From a bacterium BMS3Abin14 (GTDB lineage Bacteria > BMS3Abin14): a stretch of DNA of 64,000 nt. The position numbers and the translations under genes were made by a program. Shown in pieces: positions 9,823-53,760 of this stretch (positions within the stretch are counted from its first letter, which is position 1; each line of letters begins with the position of its first letter). The stretch lies in the NCBI GenBank assembly GCA_002897695.1, contig BDTG01000028.1, forward strand, positions 7,329 to 71,328, written 5' to 3'. Below the pieces are notes generated by a model that did not search any database, was not told the DNA's origin, and saw only the letters and a list, made by a program, of their open reading frames with translations.

Positions 9823-10988
9823 GCCCCAATCCCTTTCCGGACTTTTGGCCTGTGGAAGCAATGGCCGGCAAGGAAGGGGCAGAAAAAGACGAGAGCAATG
9901 ACGGATAAAACGGCGTCGGGCATCCACGCCGCGAATACCGGCGAGAATGCATCACCTGCGGTTAACCTGGAACTGAGGGAAAAGAGGAAGAAACTGATGC
10001 CGAAGAGAACTATGGATGCCAGAAAAGCCGCGGGTTTCCCGTAGCTCCGTGAGGAAATGGCCATGGGGAAGATTATGAAAGGAAAGATCATGATAACCGC
10101 AGGCAGTGAAAACCTCCTGTGGATGGTCATTATCAGCTTTCGCAGTTCCATTGTTCTCCCCTCCGATTTCAGCTCAGGCACCTTTTCGCGCAATTGCCCC
10201 AGGGTAAGGCTGGAATAGAGCTGTTCACTGTTCAGGCCCTCCGCGGATCCATGTTTTTCAATTCGCGTGACAAGGTTGTCGAAAGCTCCGGATATGTACC
10301 CTGGTTCCGGCGCGCTGATCGGCTGAATCGTGCCATGGTGGAGACGGAGTGTTACGTCCCCTCCAAGCACCGTGGGGATCTCGATAATACCGGATTTCGC
10401 CAGGATAATATCCCCCTTGCCCTTTTTCCAGCTTTGCACCATCAGCAAGTGGCCCATTTTTCCGGATGCAGGATCAAAATCATCCACCAGGAGGACGGCG
10501 CCCGGTATACCCCTGAAAAAGGTTCCCGGTTTTAATTCACTCAGTACCCTTTGTCTTGCTATTTCCAGCAGGCTGTCGTTATAGGCCCTGAAACTCATGG
10601 GGGAGATGTAGATTGAAAGGCTTGCCAGGAGAAGAAATATGCACGAGGCCGAAAAAACAAAGGGAACGAAGACGGAGAGCGGGGAGACCCCGGCGTAATA
10701 GATCGAGGTCAATTCCTGGTCCTGCTTCATCTGTCCGATGGTCGCGATCATCGCCATGAGAAATGCCAGTGGGAGGCTGTAGGTCAGCATCTCCGGCAAG
10801 AGGAGGGAAAAGGTCGTCATGAACTGGCTGAAGCTGTTCATCTGGGGGGCGATCTCATTGACCTGTCTTGAGGCCTGATCCATCAGGAAAAGAGCAGTAA
10901 AGATACCGGCGCCAGCCGAGAAGTGGCTGATGAATTTGAGCATGATGTACTTCTGGATCTTAAGCGCCATGAGATGAAAGCCCCGCAC
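9819..10988 (-). CDS. lptF: LPS export ABC permease LptF
   Basis: YjgP/YjgQ family with an N-terminal TM bundle and periplasmic domain. Paired with lptG. Confidence 0.8.
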   Translation of the reverse strand: MRGFHLMALKIQKYIMLKFISHFSAGAGIFTALFLMDQASRQVNEIAPQMNSFSQFMTTFSLLLPEMLTYSLPLAFLMAMIATIGQMKQDQELTSIYYAGVSPLSVFVPFVFSASCIFLLLASLSIYISPMSFRAYNDSLLEIARQRVLSELKPGTFFRGIPGAVLLVDDFDPASGKMGHLLMVQSWKKGKGDIILAKSGIIEIPTVLGGDVTLRLHHGTIQPISAPEPGYISGAFDNLVTRIEKHGSAEGLNSEQLYSSLTLGQLREKVPELKSEGRTMELRKLIMTIHRRFSLPAVIMIFPFIIFPMAISSRSYGKPAAFLASIVLFGISFFLFSLSSRLTAGDAFSPVFAAWMPDAVLSVIALVFFCPFLAGHCFHRPKVRKGIGA

Positions 10989-11261
10989 TGTCTGGAGTTG
11001 AATGAATACAGCTATAGCATAGAATGGAGTGAGGTGTCGAAGTGTCCGCCGTCGCTCAAGGAGCCATGGCGGACAGGCCGAACTGTGGAGTAAGGGGGTA
11101 AGGGAGTATGGGCGTGTGGGGGTATGGGCGAAGGTGGATCAAACTTGACCTGCCAAGGCTGGGATGGTACTTTGCAATTGCTTGGATTTGCACAATTTTT
11201 CAGCAGTGAATCCATCCCTGTGCATGGAAGAACAGGACGTCGGGCAAGTGGGGTTTTCATG

Positions 11262-11296
11262 ATAGAATACTGTGGGCTCAGGCGGCAGTATTCTAT
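11262..11296. promoter_or_regulatory. 11-bp perfect inverted repeat ATAGAATACTG-N13-CAGTATTCTAT just upstream of the cheW-like start
   Basis: Read directly from the sequence. Ends 14 nt before ATG 11310. Confidence 0.4.
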
Positions 11297-11309
11297 GGGG
11301 TCATCGTAA

Positions 11310-11723
11310 ATGGGCGACAGAGTGGTACTTTTTCGCATCGGAAAAATCCATTTTTCGGTGCCCTTCGAAGCGGTTGGTGAGATCGTGGGCAAGGAGCGTA
11401 TTGTCCACAGGGAAGCCCTTCCCGAGAACGTACCGGCGGGCGAGAATGACATCGAGGAATGGGTGTATGCCCGGGGGGACTGGTTTCCTTTAAACCCCCT
11501 CATTTCCGAACCCGGCCTTCCTGGACGAACACAGGTGATCATTTTGAGGCTCAACGGGAAAGGCAGGGCTTTTTTTGTTGATGAGGTGCTGGGGATTGAG
11601 AATCTGTCGGCGCTGCGGCCGGTTCCCCCTGCGGTATCTCGTTGCACTGACTTTCCCCTGTCGGGGTTTCGTATATGGGAGAGTAAAATCGTTTTCGACC
11701 TTGACCTTTCCAGGCTGATTTAA
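11310..11723 (+). CDS. CheW-like coupling domain protein
   Basis: Single CheW-like domain (...FSVPFEAVGEIV...). Confidence 0.7.
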   Translation: MGDRVVLFRIGKIHFSVPFEAVGEIVGKERIVHREALPENVPAGENDIEEWVYARGDWFPLNPLISEPGLPGRTQVIILRLNGKGRAFFVDEVLGIENLSALRPVPPAVSRCTDFPLSGFRIWESKIVFDLDLSRLI

Positions 11724-24190: not shown

Positions 24191-24228
24191 TAGTCCAGAG
24201 TCCAGAGTCCAGAGTCCAGAGGCTGGAC
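24191..24228. repeat. (GTCCAGA)x4 heptad tandem repeat ending in hairpin GTCCAGaggCTGGAC
   Basis: Seen directly. Related copies at 53735-53760, 41600-41620 and 49275-49315. Confidence 0.85.
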
Positions 24229-40719: not shown

Positions 40720-41510
40720 TTACCTGAACCTTATGTTGTGCTTTTGAACGGCCTTAACCAGATATTCTATCTCGCCGGGATGGAGGATTCCCTTCTTGAC
40801 AAAGAATTCCCCTATGGGCCGCTGGAGCCAACGCTGAAAGCCAAGGACCGCGGAACGCTGGTAGGGAGTCATGTACCCCAGGCGAAGCGCTGAGCCGCCT
40901 ATCCTTTCCCCGAACACTCTTTCCGCTGAGATGATGTGAAGCTCCTCTGAATTAAGAAACTTCCACGTGGCGGCAATATGGCCGAAAGAGGGACGCTGAC
41001 GTCTCTGCCAGGTAATGGCCTTGATAAGGGTTCTCCAGGATATGATCCCGGAGTAGTAAAGGTACTGGCCCAGCAGAAGCCTGTTCTCGGGAACCAGACC
41101 CTGCCAGAAATGGTCATGGGTTTTCCCGCCCGTTTCTGATGCCCTGTTTTCGGCCGGGTCTTCGCGGGGGGTGTTGCGGGGCTGAGGATTCGTCCGGTGA
41201 ACAGTCGTGGATAGGTCCTCCGATGACAGGAAAGCCAGAAGGCTGGAGTAGGCCTGAGTTACTGCTATGAAATGTTCGGCCATCTCATTCTCATCCTTGC
41301 CCTGAATTCTGGCCCTGTCCGGATGAAGCTCCAGAGCCTTTCTCCTGAAGGTGACCTTCAGGCCTGAAGGCCCCAGCGTTCGCAGAAACTCATCGGTCAC
41401 CTCGACATCGGCGCCGAAAAGCACCCTGAATGCCGAAGTGATCTCCCGGGTATTTAACGCGGTATTCAAGGACCAGAACCTCCCTAAGTCTCCAGCTACA
41501 AACAGAAGAA
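40720..41510 (-). CDS. J-domain (DnaJ-like, HPD motif) protein with uncharacterised C-terminal domain; start uncertain
   Basis: KVTFRRKALELHPDRA J-domain core. The upstream part of ORF 40720..41919 looks non-coding (repeat-rich), so a later TTG/GTG start is assumed. Confidence 0.5.
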
Positions 41511-41587
41511 TCGCTTGCAGGCACAAAAGCGACAACCGCAACTTTACAGTGACGCTATTCTGGGTAATAAACGTGCATGTGTCAAGT

Positions 41588-41768
41588 GTCTTGAACGTGG
41601 TCCAATGTCCAATGTCCAACGGGGAAAAGCCGGATGTGGTGACACGGAGACACGGAGAAAAACGAAGAGGGGGGATAAGAGCAGGCGGTGGGCTCGATTT
41701 AACAGGGATGAAGGGGATGAAAACAGGCGATGGGCAGTAAGAGCAAGTTTGTAGTTTGAGGCTTGAGG
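41588..41768. repeat. left imperfect inverted repeat of the island (core GTCTTGAACGTGgtccaATGTCCAATGTCCAACGGGGAAAAG plus second block GCAAGTTTGtAGTTTGAGG)
   Basis: The reverse complement of 49249-49315 aligns (AACGTG...ATGTCCAAyGTCCAACGGGGAA..GCAAGTTTGAGGTTTGAGG). Local micro-tandem repeats (gacacggag x2, atcgaaga x3). Confidence 0.75.
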
Positions 41769-41867
41769 TTAAAATCTGGCACTGAAACCTTGGTGAAACA
41801 GACATGGGAGCAAGGGAGTAAGGGCGTATCGAAGCATCGAAGAATCGAAGAATCTCAAACTCGCCTA

Positions 41868-42360
41868 TATTATGTGACAATTGTCTTGTCCGGTTCGACG
41901 TGGTATGCCTCGATCCCAAAAACGACTTTTAAAAAGGGAGACTTTTGGTGTCGGGCAAGCCCATTAATGTCATTATCGGGGACGGGGAAAATCCCTCGTC
42001 TTTAGGTGAAGGGAAGGATGTGATAACATAATTATGTCAGATATCGATTGAACGTGAGATAGAGATCCTGTCGGGTAAAGTTGGCAGCGACCATGTTCAC
42101 GTTTTTATATCCTGTCGTCCGAGTCATAATATCAGTGTATCAGTCAGGTAGTGCAATGGTTGAAGGGAATCAGTTTCCGGGTGCTTCTTTAAGGAGTTTC
42201 CCCACTTGCGCAAGCAATTTTGGGGTCGTCATTTTTGGGCTCGCGGCTATCTTGCTGTTTCCTCCGGTACCATCACAGATGAGATGATCCAGGAGTATAT
42301 TGAAGAGCAAGAAGGGGAGCCGATTCATGATGACAGTCAATTTCCAGTTGACAACCCTTA
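41868..42360 (+). pseudogene. IS200/IS605-family TnpA (Y1 HuH transposase) remnant in three frames with an in-frame TGA
   Basis: Fragments YIM*QLSCPVRR..., ...EIEILSGKVGSDHVHVFISCRPSHNISV... (HuH) and ...QFWGRHFWARGYLAVSSGTITDEMIQEYIEEQ... are colinear with IS200 TnpA but frameshifted. Confidence 0.75.
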
Positions 42361-42391
42361 AACCCATCGCCTTTTAGGCGAGGAGTATCCA

Positions 42392-42637
42392 GTGGAGTCG
42401 AGGCTGCGGACAAACATGCCTCCAGTGAAAGCGAGCTTTCTTGCTATGACTCAAAACCATGCGAAAGATAACAATCAAATGCAGGCCTCGTTTGCGACTT
42501 TACTGAGTGGGGCGGCTGAGGCCCTTGCAAATTATCTTGACAGGCTATTGCCTTCACTTCTTGATAACTGGTGGAAAAATGCTGTGGTGGACAAGCTGTC
42601 TTTTCAGCAACACCGCGGATCAAACAGAAAGGAATAG
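42392..42637 (+). pseudogene. HEPN-related ORF fragment (frame 2), partial duplicate of the downstream HEPN N-terminus
   Basis: LLPSLLDNWWKNAVVDKLS parallels LLRVLDQNWYQISMKMNLS in the next frame. Confidence 0.35.
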
Positions 42638-43041
42638 TCCACCTCTCATCATTGGATCTTGCTGCCTTGCTTCGGGTGTTGGATCAGAACTGGTACCAGA
42701 TTTCAATGAAGATGAATCTATCCCCGGAAGTTCGCCATTTTGTTAAAGAAATGCAGACAGTTCGCAATCGGTGGGCGCACGCCGGCAGTGAAGGATTTCC
42801 GGTCGACGATGTATACCGTGACTTGGACACCCTGCAACGTTTTGCCACAGTCATTGAGGCGGACGAAGCTCTGCTTCAAGAAGTACGGTGGAGGGTGAGA
42901 CGCAGACATACTACGCATCGCAACTCAAAGCTGAAGACCGGCAGGAAGCCGAGTCCCGATTCTTGCCGTGCGAGGAATTTCATTCCTACCTCACCGCGCT
43001 GCAAATTCGATATCCGGGACTCTCCACGCTCTATTCCTTGA
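42571..43041 (+). pseudogene. Swt1/sacsin-type HEPN domain ORF (R-N-x3-H motif RNRWAH), frameshifted into the SNF2 helicase gene
   Basis: HEPN Rx4-6H motif and helical pattern. The last 50 codons are Arg-rich out-of-frame translation of the helicase 5' region. Frame 0 has a stop at 42855. Confidence 0.5.
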
Positions 43042-45851
43042 ATGCCGCACGAGCCGATTTTATCCCCTATCAGTTCCGGCCCGTCTTGCGGTTTATCAGA
43101 TCAGACCGTCCTCGATTGCTGGTCGCCGATGGCGTGGGCGTCGGCAAGACAATCGAAGCGGGTCTGATTCTCCGAGAACTGCAGGCACGACGAGATATAC
43201 GCTCGATCCTCATCATATGCCCTCGCCCTCTTGTTACCGAGCGTAAGTGGCAGATTGAGATGAAGCGGTTTGAAGAGCGTTTTATTCATCTTGACGGTGG
43301 GACGCTCAGGTATTGCATAAACGAAATGGATTTGGAAGGAACCTGGCCAGAGCAGCACCAGCGAGTCATCATCCCATATTCCTTATTCGACGAAGTCCTT
43401 CTCTATGGCTCGGGCTCTGACGGCAAACGAAAGTGCAAAAAGGGGTTGTTGGATTTGGACCCACCCCCTCGCTTCGATCTGGTTATCGTGGATGAGGCGC
43501 ACCACATCCGGAATCAGGATACGTTCAGCCACAAAGCCGTGCGGTTTTTCTGTGACCATGCGGAAGCCGTGGTCTTTCTGACAGCGACGCCGATTCAACT
43601 TGGCAGCCATGACCTCTTTGTTTTGCTGAACACCCTCCGCCCCGACCTTATTATCGACCAAGAGAGCTTTGAGCACATGTCAGAGCCGAATCCGTTTATA
43701 AACCAAGCGGTCGCATTGGCGCGTGCCCAGGAACCGGACTGGACGACCCAGGCCAATGAAGCTCTCGATCAGGCTGCTGGGACACCCTGGGGACAATCGA
43801 TTCTTAAACATAATCCTGAATTCAACCGCATACATACTCTAATTTCGAAAGGCAAAATCGGATTGGAGGAGCGTGTACAGCTGATTACCGACCTCGAGGC
43901 GTTACATACCTTCTCCGGGATAATCAATCGAACGCGACGCCGCGATATCGGGGAGTTCACGATCCGAAATCCGGAAACCGTGGTTGTTGAATTTACCCCC
44001 CCCCAAAAAGAGCTTCATGACGAACTGATTCAAGTCCAGGCGGAGATATTCAGCAGACTTCATGGGGATGTTAACGTCAAGTTCATGATGACAACAATTA
44101 GACGTCAGGCTGCGAGCTGCCTTTTCGGCCTCGCCCCTTTCCTTGACGAAATTCTCAACCGGCATCTTGATGAATTATCATGGGAGGAGGCCGACAACAC
44201 CGAACCAGTTCCACAAAGCGACATCATCGATAGCATCGAATCACGAATTAAAACCATCCTTGAGAAGGCGCGTGCTCTCGATCCGAATGACCCCAAGCTT
44301 GACGCTCTCCGTAAAGTCATAAGAGACAAGCAGGGTCTGCCAAACAACAAAGTGATGCTTTTTAGCAGTTTTCGGCACACGCTTCACTATCTCTATGAAC
44401 ATCTGAACGCAGATAGTTTTCGGGTTGGAATGATTCATGGCGGCACACCTGACGAGGACCGTGTCGATCTTCGTAACCGCTTTGAGATGCAGCGAGATCA
44501 GGATAACGGTCTCGACGTTCTTCTGTTTTCCGAGATCGGTTGTGAAGGCTTGGACTACCAGTTCTGTGATTGCATTGTGAACTATGACCTGCCCTGGAAT
44601 CCGATGCGGATTGAGCAGAGAATAGGACGAATTGACCGCTGGGGGCAGAAAAGTGAAAAGGTGGCTATCTTCAATATGATTACGCCAGGGACTGTGGACG
44701 CGGACATCTATGAACGCTGTCTGGTTCGCATAGGAGTGTTCAATAATGCCCTGGGCGGTAGTGAAGAGATACTTGGTGAAATCAGTCGAGAAATTCGTAA
44801 TATTGCGGATAACTTCTCTCTGAGTGAAGCTGAGCGCGGAGAGCAGTTCCAACAATTAGCGGACAATAAGATCAGGCTAATACAAGAACAGGATGACCTC
44901 GAGCAGAAACAACTTGAGCTATTCGGCATCCGTCTTCCTCAAGACCAAATGAAGCGGGAAATCGAACAGGCGTCGAGTTTCTGGCTGTCTCCCTCTTCAA
45001 TACGAAGGCTCATAACGATTTACCTTCAGCGGGTTTGCGGAAAGGAACAGGAGTTCATACTCGGCGAGAAAGCACTGAAAACGCTTCGGCTTTCGCAAGA
45101 ATCAAGGAGTAGTGTACTACGGGATTTTCAAAGACTACCCCGCCAGAACACGTCCGCGTATCGAGAATGGGAAAACTGGTTGAAGGGTGGCAACCCTCAT
45201 CTTCTAATGACCTTCGAGTCCGAGTGCGCTTCGCACCACCCTGAGGCCGTTTTCATTATGCCCCTCCATCCCTTGGTAAAACAGGCGGCCATGGCATTCG
45301 ATGCCAGAAAGCGCGTATTTACAGCCCTGAAGGTTAACAGCAATGATGTCCCGAAAGGCAGATACGAATTCGCCATCTTCCAATGGCAGTTCCATGGCGT
45401 TAGGGAGGATTTGGTCTTGCGGCCTGTTGCTTCCTCGGACGTGGTGACCGAACACCTTCCAGGTCTTGTTGAGAAAGCGGAAGGAGATCCCACTGGAAGG
45501 ATCGACGTCGCAGATCCCGCCATTTGGGATGGTCTGGATGCGCAGCATCACAGGCTGTGGTCTGAAGCACGCAAAAACCATCAACGAAAGACCCAGGAAC
45601 TGGCTGAATACCGGAGGGAGAGTTTGACAACGAGCCACAGAGCCCGGATCTCACTTCTTGAAGAACAACTGGGTCAAGCGAGTAATGACAAAATCAGGCG
45701 GATGCGCCAAGCTCAAATTGCAGCGGCTGAAGCGGATTACGCGCGTCGCATTCAAGAATTGGATATTGCTATGGAACGGGCCGATATTACCGCCCAACCG
45801 GTGGCGTATGGGGTAATCCACATCGATGGAGGGTTGTCGGATGCCGAGTGA
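42888..45851 (+). CDS. SNF2/Rad54-family superfamily-2 helicase (DEAH), about 350-aa C-terminal region of unknown function
   Basis: Motif I DGVGVGKT, II VIVDEAHHIRN, III FLTATPIQ, V LFSEIGCEGLDY, VI QRIGRIDRWGQ. GTG start; possibly originally fused to the upstream HEPN. Confidence 0.85.
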   Translation: MEGETQTYYASQLKAEDRQEAESRFLPCEEFHSYLTALQIRYPGLSTLYSLNAARADFIPYQFRPVLRFIRSDRPRLLVADGVGVGKTIEAGLILRELQARRDIRSILIICPRPLVTERKWQIEMKRFEERFIHLDGGTLRYCINEMDLEGTWPEQHQRVIIPYSLFDEVLLYGSGSDGKRKCKKGLLDLDPPPRFDLVIVDEAHHIRNQDTFSHKAVRFFCDHAEAVVFLTATPIQLGSHDLFVLLNTLRPDLIIDQESFEHMSEPNPFINQAVALARAQEPDWTTQANEALDQAAGTPWGQSILKHNPEFNRIHTLISKGKIGLEERVQLITDLEALHTFSGIINRTRRRDIGEFTIRNPETVVVEFTPPQKELHDELIQVQAEIFSRLHGDVNVKFMMTTIRRQAASCLFGLAPFLDEILNRHLDELSWEEADNTEPVPQSDIIDSIESRIKTILEKARALDPNDPKLDALRKVIRDKQGLPNNKVMLFSSFRHTLHYLYEHLNADSFRVGMIHGGTPDEDRVDLRNRFEMQRDQDNGLDVLLFSEIGCEGLDYQFCDCIVNYDLPWNPMRIEQRIGRIDRWGQKSEKVAIFNMITPGTVDADIYERCLVRIGVFNNALGGSEEILGEISREIRNIADNFSLSEAERGEQFQQLADNKIRLIQEQDDLEQKQLELFGIRLPQDQMKREIEQASSFWLSPSSIRRLITIYLQRVCGKEQEFILGEKALKTLRLSQESRSSVLRDFQRLPRQNTSAYREWENWLKGGNPHLLMTFESECASHHPEAVFIMPLHPLVKQAAMAFDARKRVFTALKVNSNDVPKGRYEFAIFQWQFHGVREDLVLRPVASSDVVTEHLPGLVEKAEGDPTGRIDVADPAIWDGLDAQHHRLWSEARKNHQRKTQELAEYRRESLTTSHRARISLLEEQLGQASNDKIRRMRQAQIAAAEADYARRIQELDIAMERADITAQPVAYGVIHIDGGLSDAE

Positions 45852-48800
45852 CTACGAACAGATTTGCAAGGATAATATTCGCCGTCGTGGTGAGGAATTT
45901 GACGACATAGGTCAGCTCATATCAGAACAACTCCACAGTGATCGCACACATTTTATCTACGAGCTTCTTCAAAACGCTGAAGATGCACTAGGGCGTCGCA
46001 AGCGAAACAATCCAGAAAGTGAATTGCCCACCAACGTTAAGTTTCTTCTCTATAAAGATAGAATGGAATTTAGACACTTCGGGGAAAACTTTAACATAGA
46101 AGATGTAAAAGGCATTTCAAACGTTCTTAAAGGCACCAAGTCCGAAGATAAGACTCAAATTGGAAAATTTGGCATAGGATTTAAGTCAGTATATGCATTT
46201 ACTTCAACACCAGAAATTCACTCTGGAGCCGAACATTTTATTATCGAACGATATATTCGACCTCGAAGCGCTGATAAATTTCCACAAATAGCCAGCGGAG
46301 AGACAACCTTTGTTTTCCCCTTCAATCATAAAGACCTTTCAAAAGAACAAGCATTTCAGCTCATAGAAGAGAAGCTGAAAAAGATTGGTTCCCGCATCTT
46401 ACTTTTCCTGGGTAACATAACGGAAATTAAATGGAAAATTGAAGACCAAGATGAAGGACTATATCTTAAAGAATCAAAACAGCAAGGCCAGTTCGCCCAA
46501 AAGGTTACTGTGATAGGACAGCACGGAAATGAAAATGAAGAAGAGGAGTGGCTTGTTTTCAGACGACAGATTGAGGCTGGGAATTCATCTTTTGAGAGTT
46601 TTGTTGAAGTAGCATTCAGATTAAAAAATGATGTAAAATTAGAAAGAGAAATTATACAGAAAATTGAATCTTCTCCATTGATTGTTTATTTCCCCACAAA
46701 ACTTGAGACGCGTTTTGGTTTTTTTGTTCATGGTCCTTATGACACTACTGCTTCGCGTTCGGACATTGAAAATAACGAATGGAATAGAAGACTAATCATC
46801 GAAACGGCAGATCTTTTAACCGAAATAGTCTTGCCTTGGTTAAAGGAAAATAGGTTATTAACTCCCAGTTTTCTTGAGGCTCTACCAATCAGACTCGATG
46901 TATTTCCACAAGATAGCTTATTTCGGCCAATATATGAAAAGGTGCGGGGTGCACTAAGAAATCAAGATTTTCTTCCGACAACAGATGGTAATTACGTTGC
47001 CGGGAAGCGTGCAGTGCTCGCTCGCGCTGAAGACCTTGTGAACTTAATGAGCTCGGAACAACTTTCCTTCCTATTAAGCAAATCGATAAAATTAGAATGG
47101 CTTACAACAGATATAACGGAAAATAAAAAAGATATCCATCGATATTTAGTTGGTTGGAAGCCAGGCTACTACGATACTGGAGAGGAGACAGAATCACTTA
47201 TTGTTGCTGAGATTCGCCCACAAGATTTAATTGAAAAACTTACGTCTGATTTCCTAGAGGCGCAAAGTATCACCTGGCTACTTAAATTTTATGCTTTTTG
47301 TGAAAAACGCCCCACACTTATTGACAAGTTAAAAAATAAACCTGTTGTTCGTCTCGAAGAAGGTCCTTATGTTATTCCATTCAAGCAAGACGGTTCTCCT
47401 AATGCTTACTTGCCACCTGAAAACGATACAGAGTTTCCAGTGGTGTCCAGAAAAATATCTAAAGATGAAAAGGCGCTTGAATTCCTCAAGAAATTAGGGC
47501 TCACAAAGCCTGATGCAGTTGCTGAAGTGATAGAACATGTTCTTCCCAAATACAGGCAATCTAATCCTGATATCTCAGATGATGAACATCGCCAGGACAT
47601 AAAAAAAATCCTAAAGGCTTACGAAACTGACTCTCAAAAAAAGAAGAGAAGACTGATAGAACAGTTACAGGCAACGGAGTTTATTTTTACGGAAACACCC
47701 GGCATAGAAACGACCAGTTTCAGAAGGCCAATTGACGCGTATTTCTGGAGTAATGAGTTGGAAGCATACTTTTCTGGCAGCAACACAGTTGGTTTCGTTA
47801 GGCCAGAATTTTATAATCAGTCCGTCTTGGCGGTTTTCGAAGATCTGGGAGTCACTGATAAGATACGAATACGATGTAAGTCAAAAAATGGTTCAGTGGA
47901 TTACATGCAGCTTGAATATAAGAATTGGCATAGGCGTGGGCTAAGAGGTTTTGATCCAGATATTCAAATAGACGGAATCCAATATGCCATAAAGAATCCA
48001 TCAGGTGAAAAGAGCAAAATCATTTGGAACGAAGTAGCGGTAAAGTACAGTCATTGCATTAAGGGCAAAATTATAAGATCAAGCCGGCAAGATTTTTCAC
48101 TGAATGCAAGCGTCTACGAAGAAGAGGAATTAACGTCAAATTTTGGCCGATTATTGATGGACACCCCTTGGCTGCCAGATAAGCAAGACAACTTTCATAA
48201 ACCCGCTGAACTCAAGCTCGACGATCTACCGGAATCATTTGTTCGTGATGAAAAACCGGTCAACCAGTTAGGTATGAAGAAAGATGTTGTCGCTAAACTT
48301 GCGGAAGAAGCAGGTATTTCATTAGATAATATCGAAAAGGCCAAGAAAATTGCTGAAGCCTCTCCAGAAGTCAAAGAACAAATTGACTTATTGCTCTCTA
48401 ATTCCAACGAAAAACAGCCGGAATTCCCCCGAAAAGCCTCATCGAATGTTGACCGCCGCAGAAAAAAAACAACTGAAAAATACCATAAGGCACCCAAAAA
48501 GAAATATGAAAAGAAACCTTACAGTAAAAAGGTTACTGAAAATACTATAGATCCCAAAATTTGGCTGAGAGAAACATATACGAACAAAGAAAGGCAGATG
48601 ATTTGCCAAATATGCCAGAATGAAATGCCCTTCAAAAAGAAGGATAGCCAGTATTATTTTGAAGCCGTCGAATTATTGAATGATTTTGATCGCGAGATGG
48701 AAGAGTTTTATATTGCCCTGTGCCCCCTATGTGCGGCTATGTATAACGAATTTGTGAAACATGACAAAGGTGCCATGGAGCCTTTGAAAAACGCGTTGAT

Positions 48801-48912
48801 AAATTCGGACGACGCTGAAGTCCCGCTGCAGCTTGGAGAGCTGGACACAAGTGTCCGGTTTGTCGAGACCCATTATCACGATATACAGACTATTCTCGAG
48901 GAGCGAAAATAA
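45841..48912 (+). CDS. sacsin/Hsp90-like GHKL ATPase domain protein (1028 aa) with C-terminal CxxC-N35-CxxC zinc ribbon
   Basis: N-box IYELLQNAEDA and G2-box IGKFGIGFKSVYAF at the N-terminus. Long mixed middle region. C-terminal CQICQN...CPLCAAMY. Start overlaps the helicase stop (ATGccgagTGA). Confidence 0.8.
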   Translation: MPSDYEQICKDNIRRRGEEFDDIGQLISEQLHSDRTHFIYELLQNAEDALGRRKRNNPESELPTNVKFLLYKDRMEFRHFGENFNIEDVKGISNVLKGTKSEDKTQIGKFGIGFKSVYAFTSTPEIHSGAEHFIIERYIRPRSADKFPQIASGETTFVFPFNHKDLSKEQAFQLIEEKLKKIGSRILLFLGNITEIKWKIEDQDEGLYLKESKQQGQFAQKVTVIGQHGNENEEEEWLVFRRQIEAGNSSFESFVEVAFRLKNDVKLEREIIQKIESSPLIVYFPTKLETRFGFFVHGPYDTTASRSDIENNEWNRRLIIETADLLTEIVLPWLKENRLLTPSFLEALPIRLDVFPQDSLFRPIYEKVRGALRNQDFLPTTDGNYVAGKRAVLARAEDLVNLMSSEQLSFLLSKSIKLEWLTTDITENKKDIHRYLVGWKPGYYDTGEETESLIVAEIRPQDLIEKLTSDFLEAQSITWLLKFYAFCEKRPTLIDKLKNKPVVRLEEGPYVIPFKQDGSPNAYLPPENDTEFPVVSRKISKDEKALEFLKKLGLTKPDAVAEVIEHVLPKYRQSNPDISDDEHRQDIKKILKAYETDSQKKKRRLIEQLQATEFIFTETPGIETTSFRRPIDAYFWSNELEAYFSGSNTVGFVRPEFYNQSVLAVFEDLGVTDKIRIRCKSKNGSVDYMQLEYKNWHRRGLRGFDPDIQIDGIQYAIKNPSGEKSKIIWNEVAVKYSHCIKGKIIRSSRQDFSLNASVYEEEELTSNFGRLLMDTPWLPDKQDNFHKPAELKLDDLPESFVRDEKPVNQLGMKKDVVAKLAEEAGISLDNIEKAKKIAEASPEVKEQIDLLLSNSNEKQPEFPRKASSNVDRRRKKTTEKYHKAPKKKYEKKPYSKKVTENTIDPKIWLRETYTNKERQMICQICQNEMPFKKKDSQYYFEAVELLNDFDREMEEFYIALCPLCAAMYNEFVKHDKGAMEPLKNALINSDDAEVPLQLGELDTSVRFVETHYHDIQTILEERK

Positions 48913-49248
48913 GTTCGCTCGGTGGCCATTGCGAGCAATTCTCTACATGCGTAGGCCTAATTTTACTGCCAGATATCAAGCGAAGACTGAGGCAATTGTT
49001 CGGGCCGGAACGGCTTCAAGACAGGGTGAGTCATGATGTTTGAAGCCGCGTCGGGCCTATGCAGCTCCCCCCAAATGAAAGATCAAGAGGCTCGGCGGAA
49101 TCTGGAACCCGAGACGAAAGCTTCGAGGAAGCCCTTGTGTCAGAGACAGTTAAGGCAATGGGACGTGTATGGGAGCATTGAGGTAACGAAGTGTTATCTA
49201 TGTCCTGAACTAAAAGTGTTGCCCCTGTCCTGATTGCTCCCCCGCATC

Positions 49249-49315
49249 CCTCAAACCTCAAACTTGCCCTTCCCCGTTGGACGTTGGACATTCTTTCTCA
49301 CGTTGAACGTTGGAC
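49249..49315. repeat. right imperfect inverted repeat of the island
   Basis: Reverse complement matches 41588-41629 and 41743-41768. Confidence 0.75.
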
Positions 49316-53734: not shown

Positions 53735-53760
53735 TAGTCCAGAGTCCAGCGTCCAGAGGG
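53735..53760. repeat. heptad repeat TAGTCCAGAGTCCAGCGTCCAGAGG (same family as 24191-24222)
   Basis: Near-identical to the repeat after the mglA-like gene. Confidence 0.8.

Follow-up and report, generated by a model that had tools for sequence, protein, structure and literature searches.

The locus examined here raises the question of why a gene resembling that of a large eukaryotic protein, sacsin, should be found in a bacterium. It lies at 45841-48912 in a 64,000-nucleotide (nt) stretch of DNA (the window) from the bacterium BMS3Abin14 (assembly GCA_002897695.1, contig BDTG01000028.1), and encodes a sacsin-like ATPase of the GHKL type; positions given below are those of the window, and features are on its forward strand unless otherwise stated. 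A preliminary description of this DNA noted that all three domain types of sacsin (the ATPase unit SRR, a J domain and a HEPN domain) occur within 8 kb, and suggested that the bacterial module is a relative or precursor of sacsin. Our analysis leads to a different answer: the locus is probably a decayed two-gene defence module, similar to the Tiamat and Hma systems and apparently uncatalogued, which resides on a horizontally acquired island. Such a module would consist of a DrmD/RapA/BrxH-type SNF2 translocase, ancestrally equipped with an N-terminal Swt1-type HEPN RNase and a small Tudor-like domain, and of a GHKL ATPase of the sacsin/Hsp90 kind, whose translation is coupled to that of the translocase and whose C-terminus is formed by an HNH-like zinc domain, degenerate at its catalytic positions.

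The ATPase gene is intact. Its open reading frame (ORF), which ends at 48912, has two candidate starts, ATG 45826 (1028 amino acids, aa) and ATG 45841 (1023 aa). The second of these is supported because homologues begin with MPSDY, and the length of 1028 aa given in the preliminary description should therefore be corrected to 1023 aa. The ORF contains the sequences YELLQNAEDA and GKFGIGFKSVY, within which the Bergerat-fold ATP-binding motifs ELLQNAEDA (residues 41-49) and GKFGIGFKSVY (residues 108-118; together 45961-46194) form invariant columns in an alignment of 30 homologues and align with the SRR motifs of sacsin in the structures 5V47 and 5V45. The protein matched Pfam SACS (PF25794, 2.4e-13) and NCBIfam P_loop_sacsin (NF047352, 1.9e-21), in both cases above the cut-off. 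When the profile of the 30-member family was compared with the PDB, the SRR structures of sacsin (5V44-5V47) came first (E 6e-14 to 1.5e-12), followed by Hsp90, HtpG and TRAP1 (from 7e-6), and no MutL, MORC or histidine kinase structure was matched at E<=0.01. The AlphaFold model of the protein (mean pLDDT 76.6) found its best Foldseek matches in full-length Hsp90/TRAP1, over approximately 550 columns. Profile search and fold match together place the ATPase in the sacsin/Hsp90 branch of the GHKL superfamily, and not in that of MutL, MORC or the histidine kinases. The recognition of a sacsin-like GHKL ATPase with an SRR-type signature in the preliminary description has thus been borne out, and a clustering with MutL, MORC or histidine kinases, which it had named as grounds for refutation, was not observed.

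The search for homologues of this ATPase returned 3190 proteins (E<1e-5), the best of which are full length (approximately 1000-1070 aa) and carry no protein name. A scan of one genome per species revealed 80 ATPase loci distributed over many phyla, 36 of which were informative, i.e. the ATPase included the C-terminal zinc domain (discussed below) and enough upstream sequence was available. In each of the 36, the ATPase gene is immediately preceded by a co-oriented gene encoding an SNF2 helicase (DrmD/RapA-like), and in most of them the SNF2 stop and the ATPase start overlap by 7-10 nt (11 nt in the window). A Swt1-type HEPN domain is located in frame at the N-terminus of the helicase in 21 of the 36 loci (approximately 58%), where the frame is extended by about 200-270 codons upstream. 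The same order can be seen in gene calls on metagenome contigs, in which a protein of 1192-1242 aa with HEPN_Swt1, SNF2-rel_dom and Helicase_C domains is followed by a SACS protein. The sequence RNRWAH is conserved in the HEPN-SNF2 fusions, and its R, W and H residues are invariant in 19 of 19 intact homologues. The linkage of a HEPN domain with an SRR-type ATPase, which the preliminary description regarded as striking, is therefore real and kept in relatives.

The remaining loci (approximately 42%) lack a detectable HEPN, and the N-terminus of their SNF2 protein is either DUF4926 or carries no domain. In a subgroup of these HEPN-less loci (L001, L002, L004, L005, L023 and L014), a 213-aa protein, for which no Pfam match was obtained (approximately 9314-9955 in L002), is encoded between the helicase and the ATPase; in L002 the SNF2 protein begins with DUF4926 and its gene is preceded by a DUF6883 gene. 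A large superfamily 1 (SF1) helicase (approximately 1240 aa) follows the ATPase in L006, L011, L013 and L081-L084 (13270-16992 in L082), and on an Ensifer plasmid (L092, 9000-12389) its place is taken by a RecB-like nuclease-helicase. We considered whether the module has a conserved third gene and rejected this idea; the SF1 helicase is treated as accessory because it is present in only a minority of loci, and neither it nor a RecB-like component was found in the window.

The surroundings of these genes are typical defence islands. They include Dcm, a MORC-like ATPase, an Mrr-helicase, Vsr and SLFN/AlbA (L082-L084), a helicase with MZB, PLD and Vsr (L081), and an HmaA-like SNF2-NOV_C protein (L002). 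The ATPase is rare on plasmids, with matches in 17 records, and almost missing from phages, with a match in a single record. The other loci of the 80-locus scan mostly contain ATPases in which the match extends only to residues 830-870 or thereabouts, and nearly all of these have no SNF2 neighbour. Two such solo relatives, examined in detail, proved to have the architecture SACS plus NOV_C (DUF3883) and matched the PADLOC TmtA profiles from end to end.

In the window itself, the gene upstream of the ATPase is broken. When judged against five intact relatives (L006, L009, L011, L034 and L090), the ancestral HEPN-SNF2 gene is now distributed over three successive frames, and its helicase part has no native start. 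Fragment A (42425-42612) is the N-terminal part of the ancestral gene; it begins at GTG 42425 or ATG 42446 and ends at a 1-nt deletion (one base is missing at approximately 42612 in comparison with L006/L009/L011/L034 and with L090), after which the frame meets a stop at 42635-42637. Fragment B (42613-42887), in the second frame, contains the catalytic RNRWAH (an Rx4-6H motif) and matches Pfam HEPN_Swt1 (PF18731, 2.3e-15). It ends at the junction of a 205-nt deletion (42887/42888, equivalent to 510/716 of L090, with the same gap visible against the four other loci), which removed the linker between HEPN and SNF2 together with a small beta domain (GQIV..GAV..PENR..VF) and shifted the frame. By analogy with the architecture presented in PMC12839542, the lost domain preceding the SNF2 core was probably a Tudor domain. 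The HEPN of the window copy is thus a predicted pseudogene, and of the Swt1/sacsin-type HEPN that the preliminary description placed two genes upstream, the presence of a Swt1-type HEPN upstream was confirmed, while its status as a separate intact gene and its assignment to the sacsin type were not.

The third piece (42888-45851) is the N-terminally truncated helicase remnant, which is open for 987 codons from a GTG without a clear ribosome-binding site and matches Pfam SNF2-rel_dom and Helicase_C. In PADLOC it matched DrmD (PDLC02623, 2e-115), BrxH (1.6e-53) and HmaA (3.8e-40), as well as DrmA and DpdE. Its best matches are therefore defence helicases (DrmD, BrxH, HmaA, DpdE), which counts in favour of a defence role. 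In contrast to the PADLOC match to DrmD, NCBIfam DISARM_DrmD scored 303 bits, below its cut-off of 610, and the NCBIfam RapA match (2.7e-49) was also well under the equivalog cut-off. The remnant is very similar to the fusion protein of L090 (93.6% aa identity; 91.6% nt identity over 3209 ungapped bases). In comparison with L090, the ratio of non-synonymous to synonymous substitution rates (dN/dS) was 0.09 in the helicase part and 0.06 in what is left of the HEPN, and these low values indicate that the lesions are recent relative to the divergence from L090. Since the HEPN effector has gone and the helicase is truncated, the module of the window is most likely inactive or crippled, as far as can be predicted from its genes.

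The ungapped identity to L090 does not extend over the whole module, but stops at 46096, within the ATPase gene, where the G+C content (GC) falls from approximately 0.51 to 0.37-0.41. We regard this position as the approximate breakpoint of a recombination event. The SNF2 and ATPase identities are also discordant across loci, and the ATPase gene of the window is a mosaic. A further protein (P0023) is nearly identical to the window ATPase in its last 230 or so residues, and yet shares only about 55% identity with it overall, a pattern that points to domain-level shuffling inside the ATPase family.

The module is contained in a 7.7-kb island (41591-49299), situated between a J-domain gene and a DUF4390-histidine kinase-NtrC operon. 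The borders were defined by blastn comparison with an island-free relative (L085): to the left and right of the island the two sequences are collinear, at 84-87% nt identity, and L085 has 510 nt in place of 41591-49299. The GC of the island is below that of its flanks, and horizontal acquisition of a defence-type island is the best explanation of these data. Besides the ATPase and the HEPN-SNF2 remnants, it contains small ORFs (41515-42005 and 48833-49291) with no Pfam match and, directly upstream of the HEPN-SNF2 gene, the remnant of an IS200-type Y1 transposase (42040-42360; Pfam Y1_Tnp PF01797, E 6e-12). This remnant is truncated and frameshifted: the match (42170-42360) begins only at position 77 of the 121-position profile and runs to its end, the HUH part at the N-terminus has been lost, and an upstream piece, DHVHVFISCRP, can be read from the sequence in a different frame.

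A 23-nt inverted repeat at the ends of the island was considered as its terminal inverted repeat and rejected, since it is made of a host repeat. Arrays of the heptamer TGGACNT occur in several intergenic regions of the window (24193-24218, 41600-41618, 49278-49315 and 53737-53755; 10 matches compared with 2.2 expected), and the same heptamer fills the island-free intergenic region of L085 (9380-9530). The flanking inverted repeats, the left one of which is mentioned in the preliminary description, are therefore explained as copies of a host-wide intergenic heptamer. BLAST of the island ends against all loci compared and the window revealed no shared mobile-element ends. No tRNA gene was found in the window, which therefore offers no tRNA integration site.

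Could the damaged module nevertheless still work? The strongest alternative to the reading of the locus as a decayed module, which we consider unlikely, is that the window retains a functional HEPN-less pair of SNF2 helicase and ATPase, the loss of a toxic HEPN having been tolerated or even selected. The SNF2 (987 codons) and ATPase ORFs are both open, their 11-nt stop/start overlap has been kept, approximately 42% of related loci are naturally devoid of HEPN, and the helicase has a dN/dS of 0.09. However, the 205-nt deletion also took the Tudor-like domain, which is conserved, together with the native start, so that translation would have to begin at a GTG that no clear ribosome-binding site precedes, and the low dN/dS derives mostly from divergence older than the lesions. 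A scan of the island for promoters and terminators gave counts close to the shuffled expectation, and so is uninformative in this respect. Moreover, the natural HEPN-less variants differ from the window copy in having a DUF4926 N-terminus and often the additional 213-aa gene.

It is less likely still that the HEPN-SNF2 gene is intact in the real genome, and that the lesions arose in the assembly, or represent a minority variant, of a metagenome-assembled genome (MAG). The window does come from such an assembly, and the HEPN-SNF2 gene is also fragmented in other MAG loci (L081, 6388-10011; L003, L024, L033 and L066), some of them probably long-read assemblies. The ATPase is mostly intact in these loci, the match being partial in L033, and the fragmentation might reflect either recurrent decay or indel errors of long-read MAG assemblies. 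Against an artefact in the window stand the presence of two independent lesions, one of which, a clean deletion of 205 nt, is improbable as a base-calling error, and the decayed state of the adjoining IS200 remnant, which fits an ageing island.

We return to the reading of the locus as a decayed defence module, and to the C-terminal part of the ATPase, which distinguishes this family. The zinc ribbon noted in the preliminary description proved to be a conserved feature (residues 845-1023, 48373-48909): among the 30 homologues C922, C925 and C961 are invariant and C964 is kept in at least 90%. When a profile of the last 179 residues was compared with the PDB, the HNH domain of EcoKMcrA (6GHC) was matched with a marginal score (E 0.0056); it was the sole sequence match at E<=0.1, and the only other one (E 1.1) was not credible. 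When the domain was modelled separately (pLDDT 80.4), 6GHC was also the top Foldseek match, again with a marginal score (probability 0.90, E 0.015), and no Pfam HNH model matched the domain. In common with the EcoKMcrA domain, it has the cysteine pairs CxxC...CxxC, which would form a zinc site around a beta-beta-alpha unit, and the zinc cysteines of the two coincide in the alignment. It differs in lacking the catalytic His, Asn and His residues, the HH, DN and CH positions of McrA being occupied by VE, AQ and CA, respectively. We therefore propose, with moderate confidence given the marginal scores, that this is a degenerate McrA-type HNH-like domain, which would be HNH-derived and would have lost canonical catalysis.

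This domain is widespread, with 963 cluster representatives at E<=1e-3 and at least 687 at E<=1e-10 (clusters of 50% identity), and among the best 150 listed it is nearly always C-terminal, in proteins of approximately 1000-1070 aa or fragments thereof. A 1561-aa archaeal protein encoded by a Halorubrum plasmid (NZ_CP098416.1; L093, 4908-9593) has a sacsin-type GHKL head and an HNH_2 domain (4e-11); here the Tiamat-like ATPase body appears in yet another, third arrangement, with a bona fide HNH. The HNH ancestry of the zinc domain is made plausible by this protein, in which a SACS head is joined to a genuine HNH_2.

With which known defence systems should the module be compared? The body of the ATPase is homologous to a validated family of defence proteins, that of TmtA from the anti-phage system Tiamat. 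Tiamat consists of one gene, the product of which has a PD-(D/E)XK domain (bioRxiv 10.1101/2024.10.26.620412). Its residues 26-800 matched the PADLOC TmtA profile (PDLC03972, 3e-67) over positions 27-808 of 1302. Both proteins have a sacsin-type GHKL head followed by about 550 further residues, and both inhabit defence islands; the ATPase is accordingly a predicted paralogue of TmtA, with an ATPase body of approximately 800 residues in common. The differences concern the effector. TmtA ends in a DUF3883/NOV_C PD-(D/E)XK domain, whereas the ATPase of the window has the degenerate HNH-like zinc domain instead, with no match to PF13020 or to the C-terminal parts of the TmtA profiles. TmtA acts alone, whereas ATPases of the window type never occur solo, an SNF2 gene being located upstream in each of the 36 informative loci, and the likely effector, HEPN, is carried by this partner protein.

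The second system of interest is Hma, which is composed of HmaA (SNF2-NOV_C), HmaB (a methylase) and HmaC (a DUF499 ATPase); Anantharaman et al. (2013) treated the corresponding operons as the Ava_2192 type. Bacterial Swt1-like HEPNs have been found in restriction-modification-like operons with SNF2-DUF3883 helicases (PMC3710099), which correspond to HmaA of the Hma system, and the SNF2-NOV_C protein HmaA protects against phage T4 (PMC11232893). The window module resembles Hma in that an SNF2 helicase (HmaA match, 3.8e-40), a HEPN of the Swt1 type and a large partner ATPase come together. However, it is the helicase, and not the ATPase, that carries the fused HEPN, its ATPase is a GHKL and not an AAA+/DUF499 enzyme, the helicase has no NOV_C, and there is no counterpart of the DUF1156 methylase. 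Membership of Hma was rejected on these grounds (no NOV_C on the SNF2 protein, no methylase, no DUF499), the likeness to HmaA being confined to the SNF2 core.

DrmD of DISARM, BrxHII of BREX and RapA provide the best profile matches of the helicase, and with RapA and BrxHII it would also have shared, in its ancestral form, a Tudor-like domain followed by the SNF2 core (architecture as in PMC12839542). In contrast to these systems, the island contains no DrmA, DrmB, DrmC, methylase or BREX genes, and class 1 DISARM was rejected since DrmA, DrmB (DUF1998), DrmC (PLD) and the methyltransferase are all missing from it. The pair of HEPN-SNF2 and GHKL ATPase was not found in PADLOC 2.0; nor was it described in the literature searched, although the searchable collection is incomplete and this amounts to absence of evidence.

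A possible mode of action can be outlined for intact copies of the module. ATP-dependent dimerisation of the GHKL head is well established for Hsp90, MutL and MORC, and HEPN RNases act as dimers. We infer that the helicase and the ATPase might form a DNA-scanning complex, in which nucleic acids or partners would be bound by the zinc domain, with its dead HNH, and by the Tudor-like domain. ATP-driven dimerisation of the GHKL heads could then bring together two helicase-tethered HEPN domains, creating a composite Rx4H RNase site, and the resulting RNA cleavage would stop phage growth. In TmtA and in the GHKL-HNH proteins the effector would be fused in cis instead. An ATPase-controlled HEPN RNase, as envisaged in the preliminary description, is a reasonable hypothesis for the intact relatives; in the window copy, whose HEPN is a predicted pseudogene, it could not operate. 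A bolder view goes further: that a widespread, uncatalogued anti-phage pair (HEPN-Tudor-SNF2 plus a sacsin-type GHKL ATPase with a dead HNH), a hybrid of Tiamat and Hma, employs an Hsp90-like clamp to license a tethered HEPN, and that the eukaryotic sacsin-type GHKL clade (sacsin, NO VEIN) descends from a bacterial defence clade. We put it forward tentatively, as a conceivable extension which falls somewhat short of being probable.

Several points weigh against the interpretation of the locus as a decayed defence module. The proposed defence role of the two-gene form rests on sequence comparison, and the profiles matched in PADLOC and NCBIfam represent related systems and are not equivalogs (for DrmD, 303 against 610 bits). 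HEPN is not a universal effector, because approximately 42% of the loci have no detectable HEPN. The HNH assignment of the zinc domain depends on marginal scores (E 0.0056 and 0.015), and activation by GHKL dimerisation is purely inferential. As regards the state of the window copy, the 1-nt deletion could be an error of MAG assembly, and some residual activity of the HEPN-less pair, translated from GTG 42888 (987 open SNF2 codons and an intact ATPase), is possible.

The idea with which this locus was first approached, namely that a sacsin-like triad of SRR ATPase, HEPN and J domain represents a functional or ancestral chaperone/RNase precursor of sacsin, now appears very improbable. It has real arguments on its side: the core of the ATPase is sacsin-like, being closer to SRR than to anything else among solved structures (6e-14 against approximately 1e-5 for Hsp90), the HEPN is truly linked to the ATPase family, and a J-like gene with an HPD motif (FRRKALELHPDRA) is located about 4.3 kb from the ATPase gene. 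However, the likeness of the ATPase to sacsin extends over only some 100 residues, all in the ATP-binding core, and there is a single ATPase unit (one SACS match per protein and one GHKL head in the model) as opposed to the three SRR units of sacsin. The HEPN belongs to a different family. The sacsin HEPN is of the nucleotidyltransferase-associated HEPN-T family (PF05168), from which the Swt1-like group is separate (Anantharaman et al. 2013, PMC3710099, Table 1); the HEPN of the module belongs to the Swt1/Abi2 group, matches PF18731 (HEPN_Swt1) and not PF05168, and a profile of the window-family HEPN retrieved no sacsin HEPN structure from the PDB even at E<=10. Furthermore, it resides on a separate protein, as a domain of the SNF2 helicase, an obligate partner with no equivalent in sacsin, and the ATPase has an HNH-derived zinc domain. 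The module itself has no J domain, and its surroundings are defence islands and not proteostasis genes.

The J-domain gene (40720-41510, reverse strand) lies outside the island. Its product, 100% identical to a protein of the MAG bacterium BMS3Abin14, is a J-domain protein with MshEN-like repeats, and its description as a J-domain protein is correct insofar as a J-like gene is present there, but the Pfam DnaJ match of the window copy (E 9e-5) is below the gathering score; most homologues carry PF00226. A homologue (76% identical) is located at the same position in L085, the collinear island-free contig, where it faces the DUF4390-histidine kinase-NtrC operon directly and has a POR-gamma gene on its other side, and in a distant genome (L086) the gene is again found beside 2-oxoacid:ferredoxin oxidoreductase (POR) genes. 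No homologue was detected in any of the 80 ATPase loci. Because it is syntenic in an island-free relative, we judge the J-domain gene to be an unrelated core gene whose nearness to the ATPase is due to chance, a coincidence that the preliminary description had itself allowed for, while naming the presence of the gene at this position in an island-free relative as grounds for refutation. Conservation of the gene beside such islands elsewhere, which the preliminary description proposed to check, was seen in none of the 80 loci. The grouping of all three sacsin domain types within 8 kb is thus a coincidence of labels, and with a core J gene, a Swt1-type HEPN, an obligate SNF2 partner and a likeness of only 100 or so residues, the case for a bacterial sacsin precursor is not upheld. 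Equally improbable is a housekeeping role, in which a RapA-like SNF2 protein would recycle RNA polymerase and an Hsp90-like protein would act as a chaperone: RapA is indeed matched by the helicase (NCBIfam, 2.7e-49) and Hsp90 by the fold of the ATPase, but both matches are far under equivalog cut-offs, the module is patchily spread over phyla, absent from this site in the closest relative and found among restriction and defence genes, it has HEPN and nuclease-derived domains, and its gene pair has been shuffled by recombination.

The J protein of the window has features of its own. It contains three MshEN/GspE-N-like repeats and a match to an NCBIfam cyclic di-GMP (c-di-GMP)-binding motif (3.9e-7) below the cut-off, and may be a c-di-GMP-responsive J protein conserved beside tricarboxylic acid cycle/POR genes in this lineage. 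In L085, a 245-aa ankyrin-repeat gene (10775-11512) lies between the J gene and POR-gamma, in a space of approximately 1000 nt; the window has 64 nt at this site and no such gene.

To conclude, the view of sacsin biology is left unchanged by this locus, as the idea of a J-domain-equipped forerunner of sacsin in bacteria was not upheld. The window contains a decaying copy of the module, and mainly illustrates how a HEPN can be lost and how recombination can act within a defence operon. For the family as a whole, the comparison indicates that at least three forms of the Tiamat ATPase body exist. One has a DUF3883 nuclease, another an active HNH, and the third combines a dead HNH with an obligatory SNF2 partner, to which a Swt1-type HEPN is often fused. 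The parts lists of Tiamat, Hma and the DISARM/BREX-type helicases are thereby linked, and a testable model for Tiamat-type ATPases is provided, in which an Hsp90-like clamp would control an effector located in cis or in trans.

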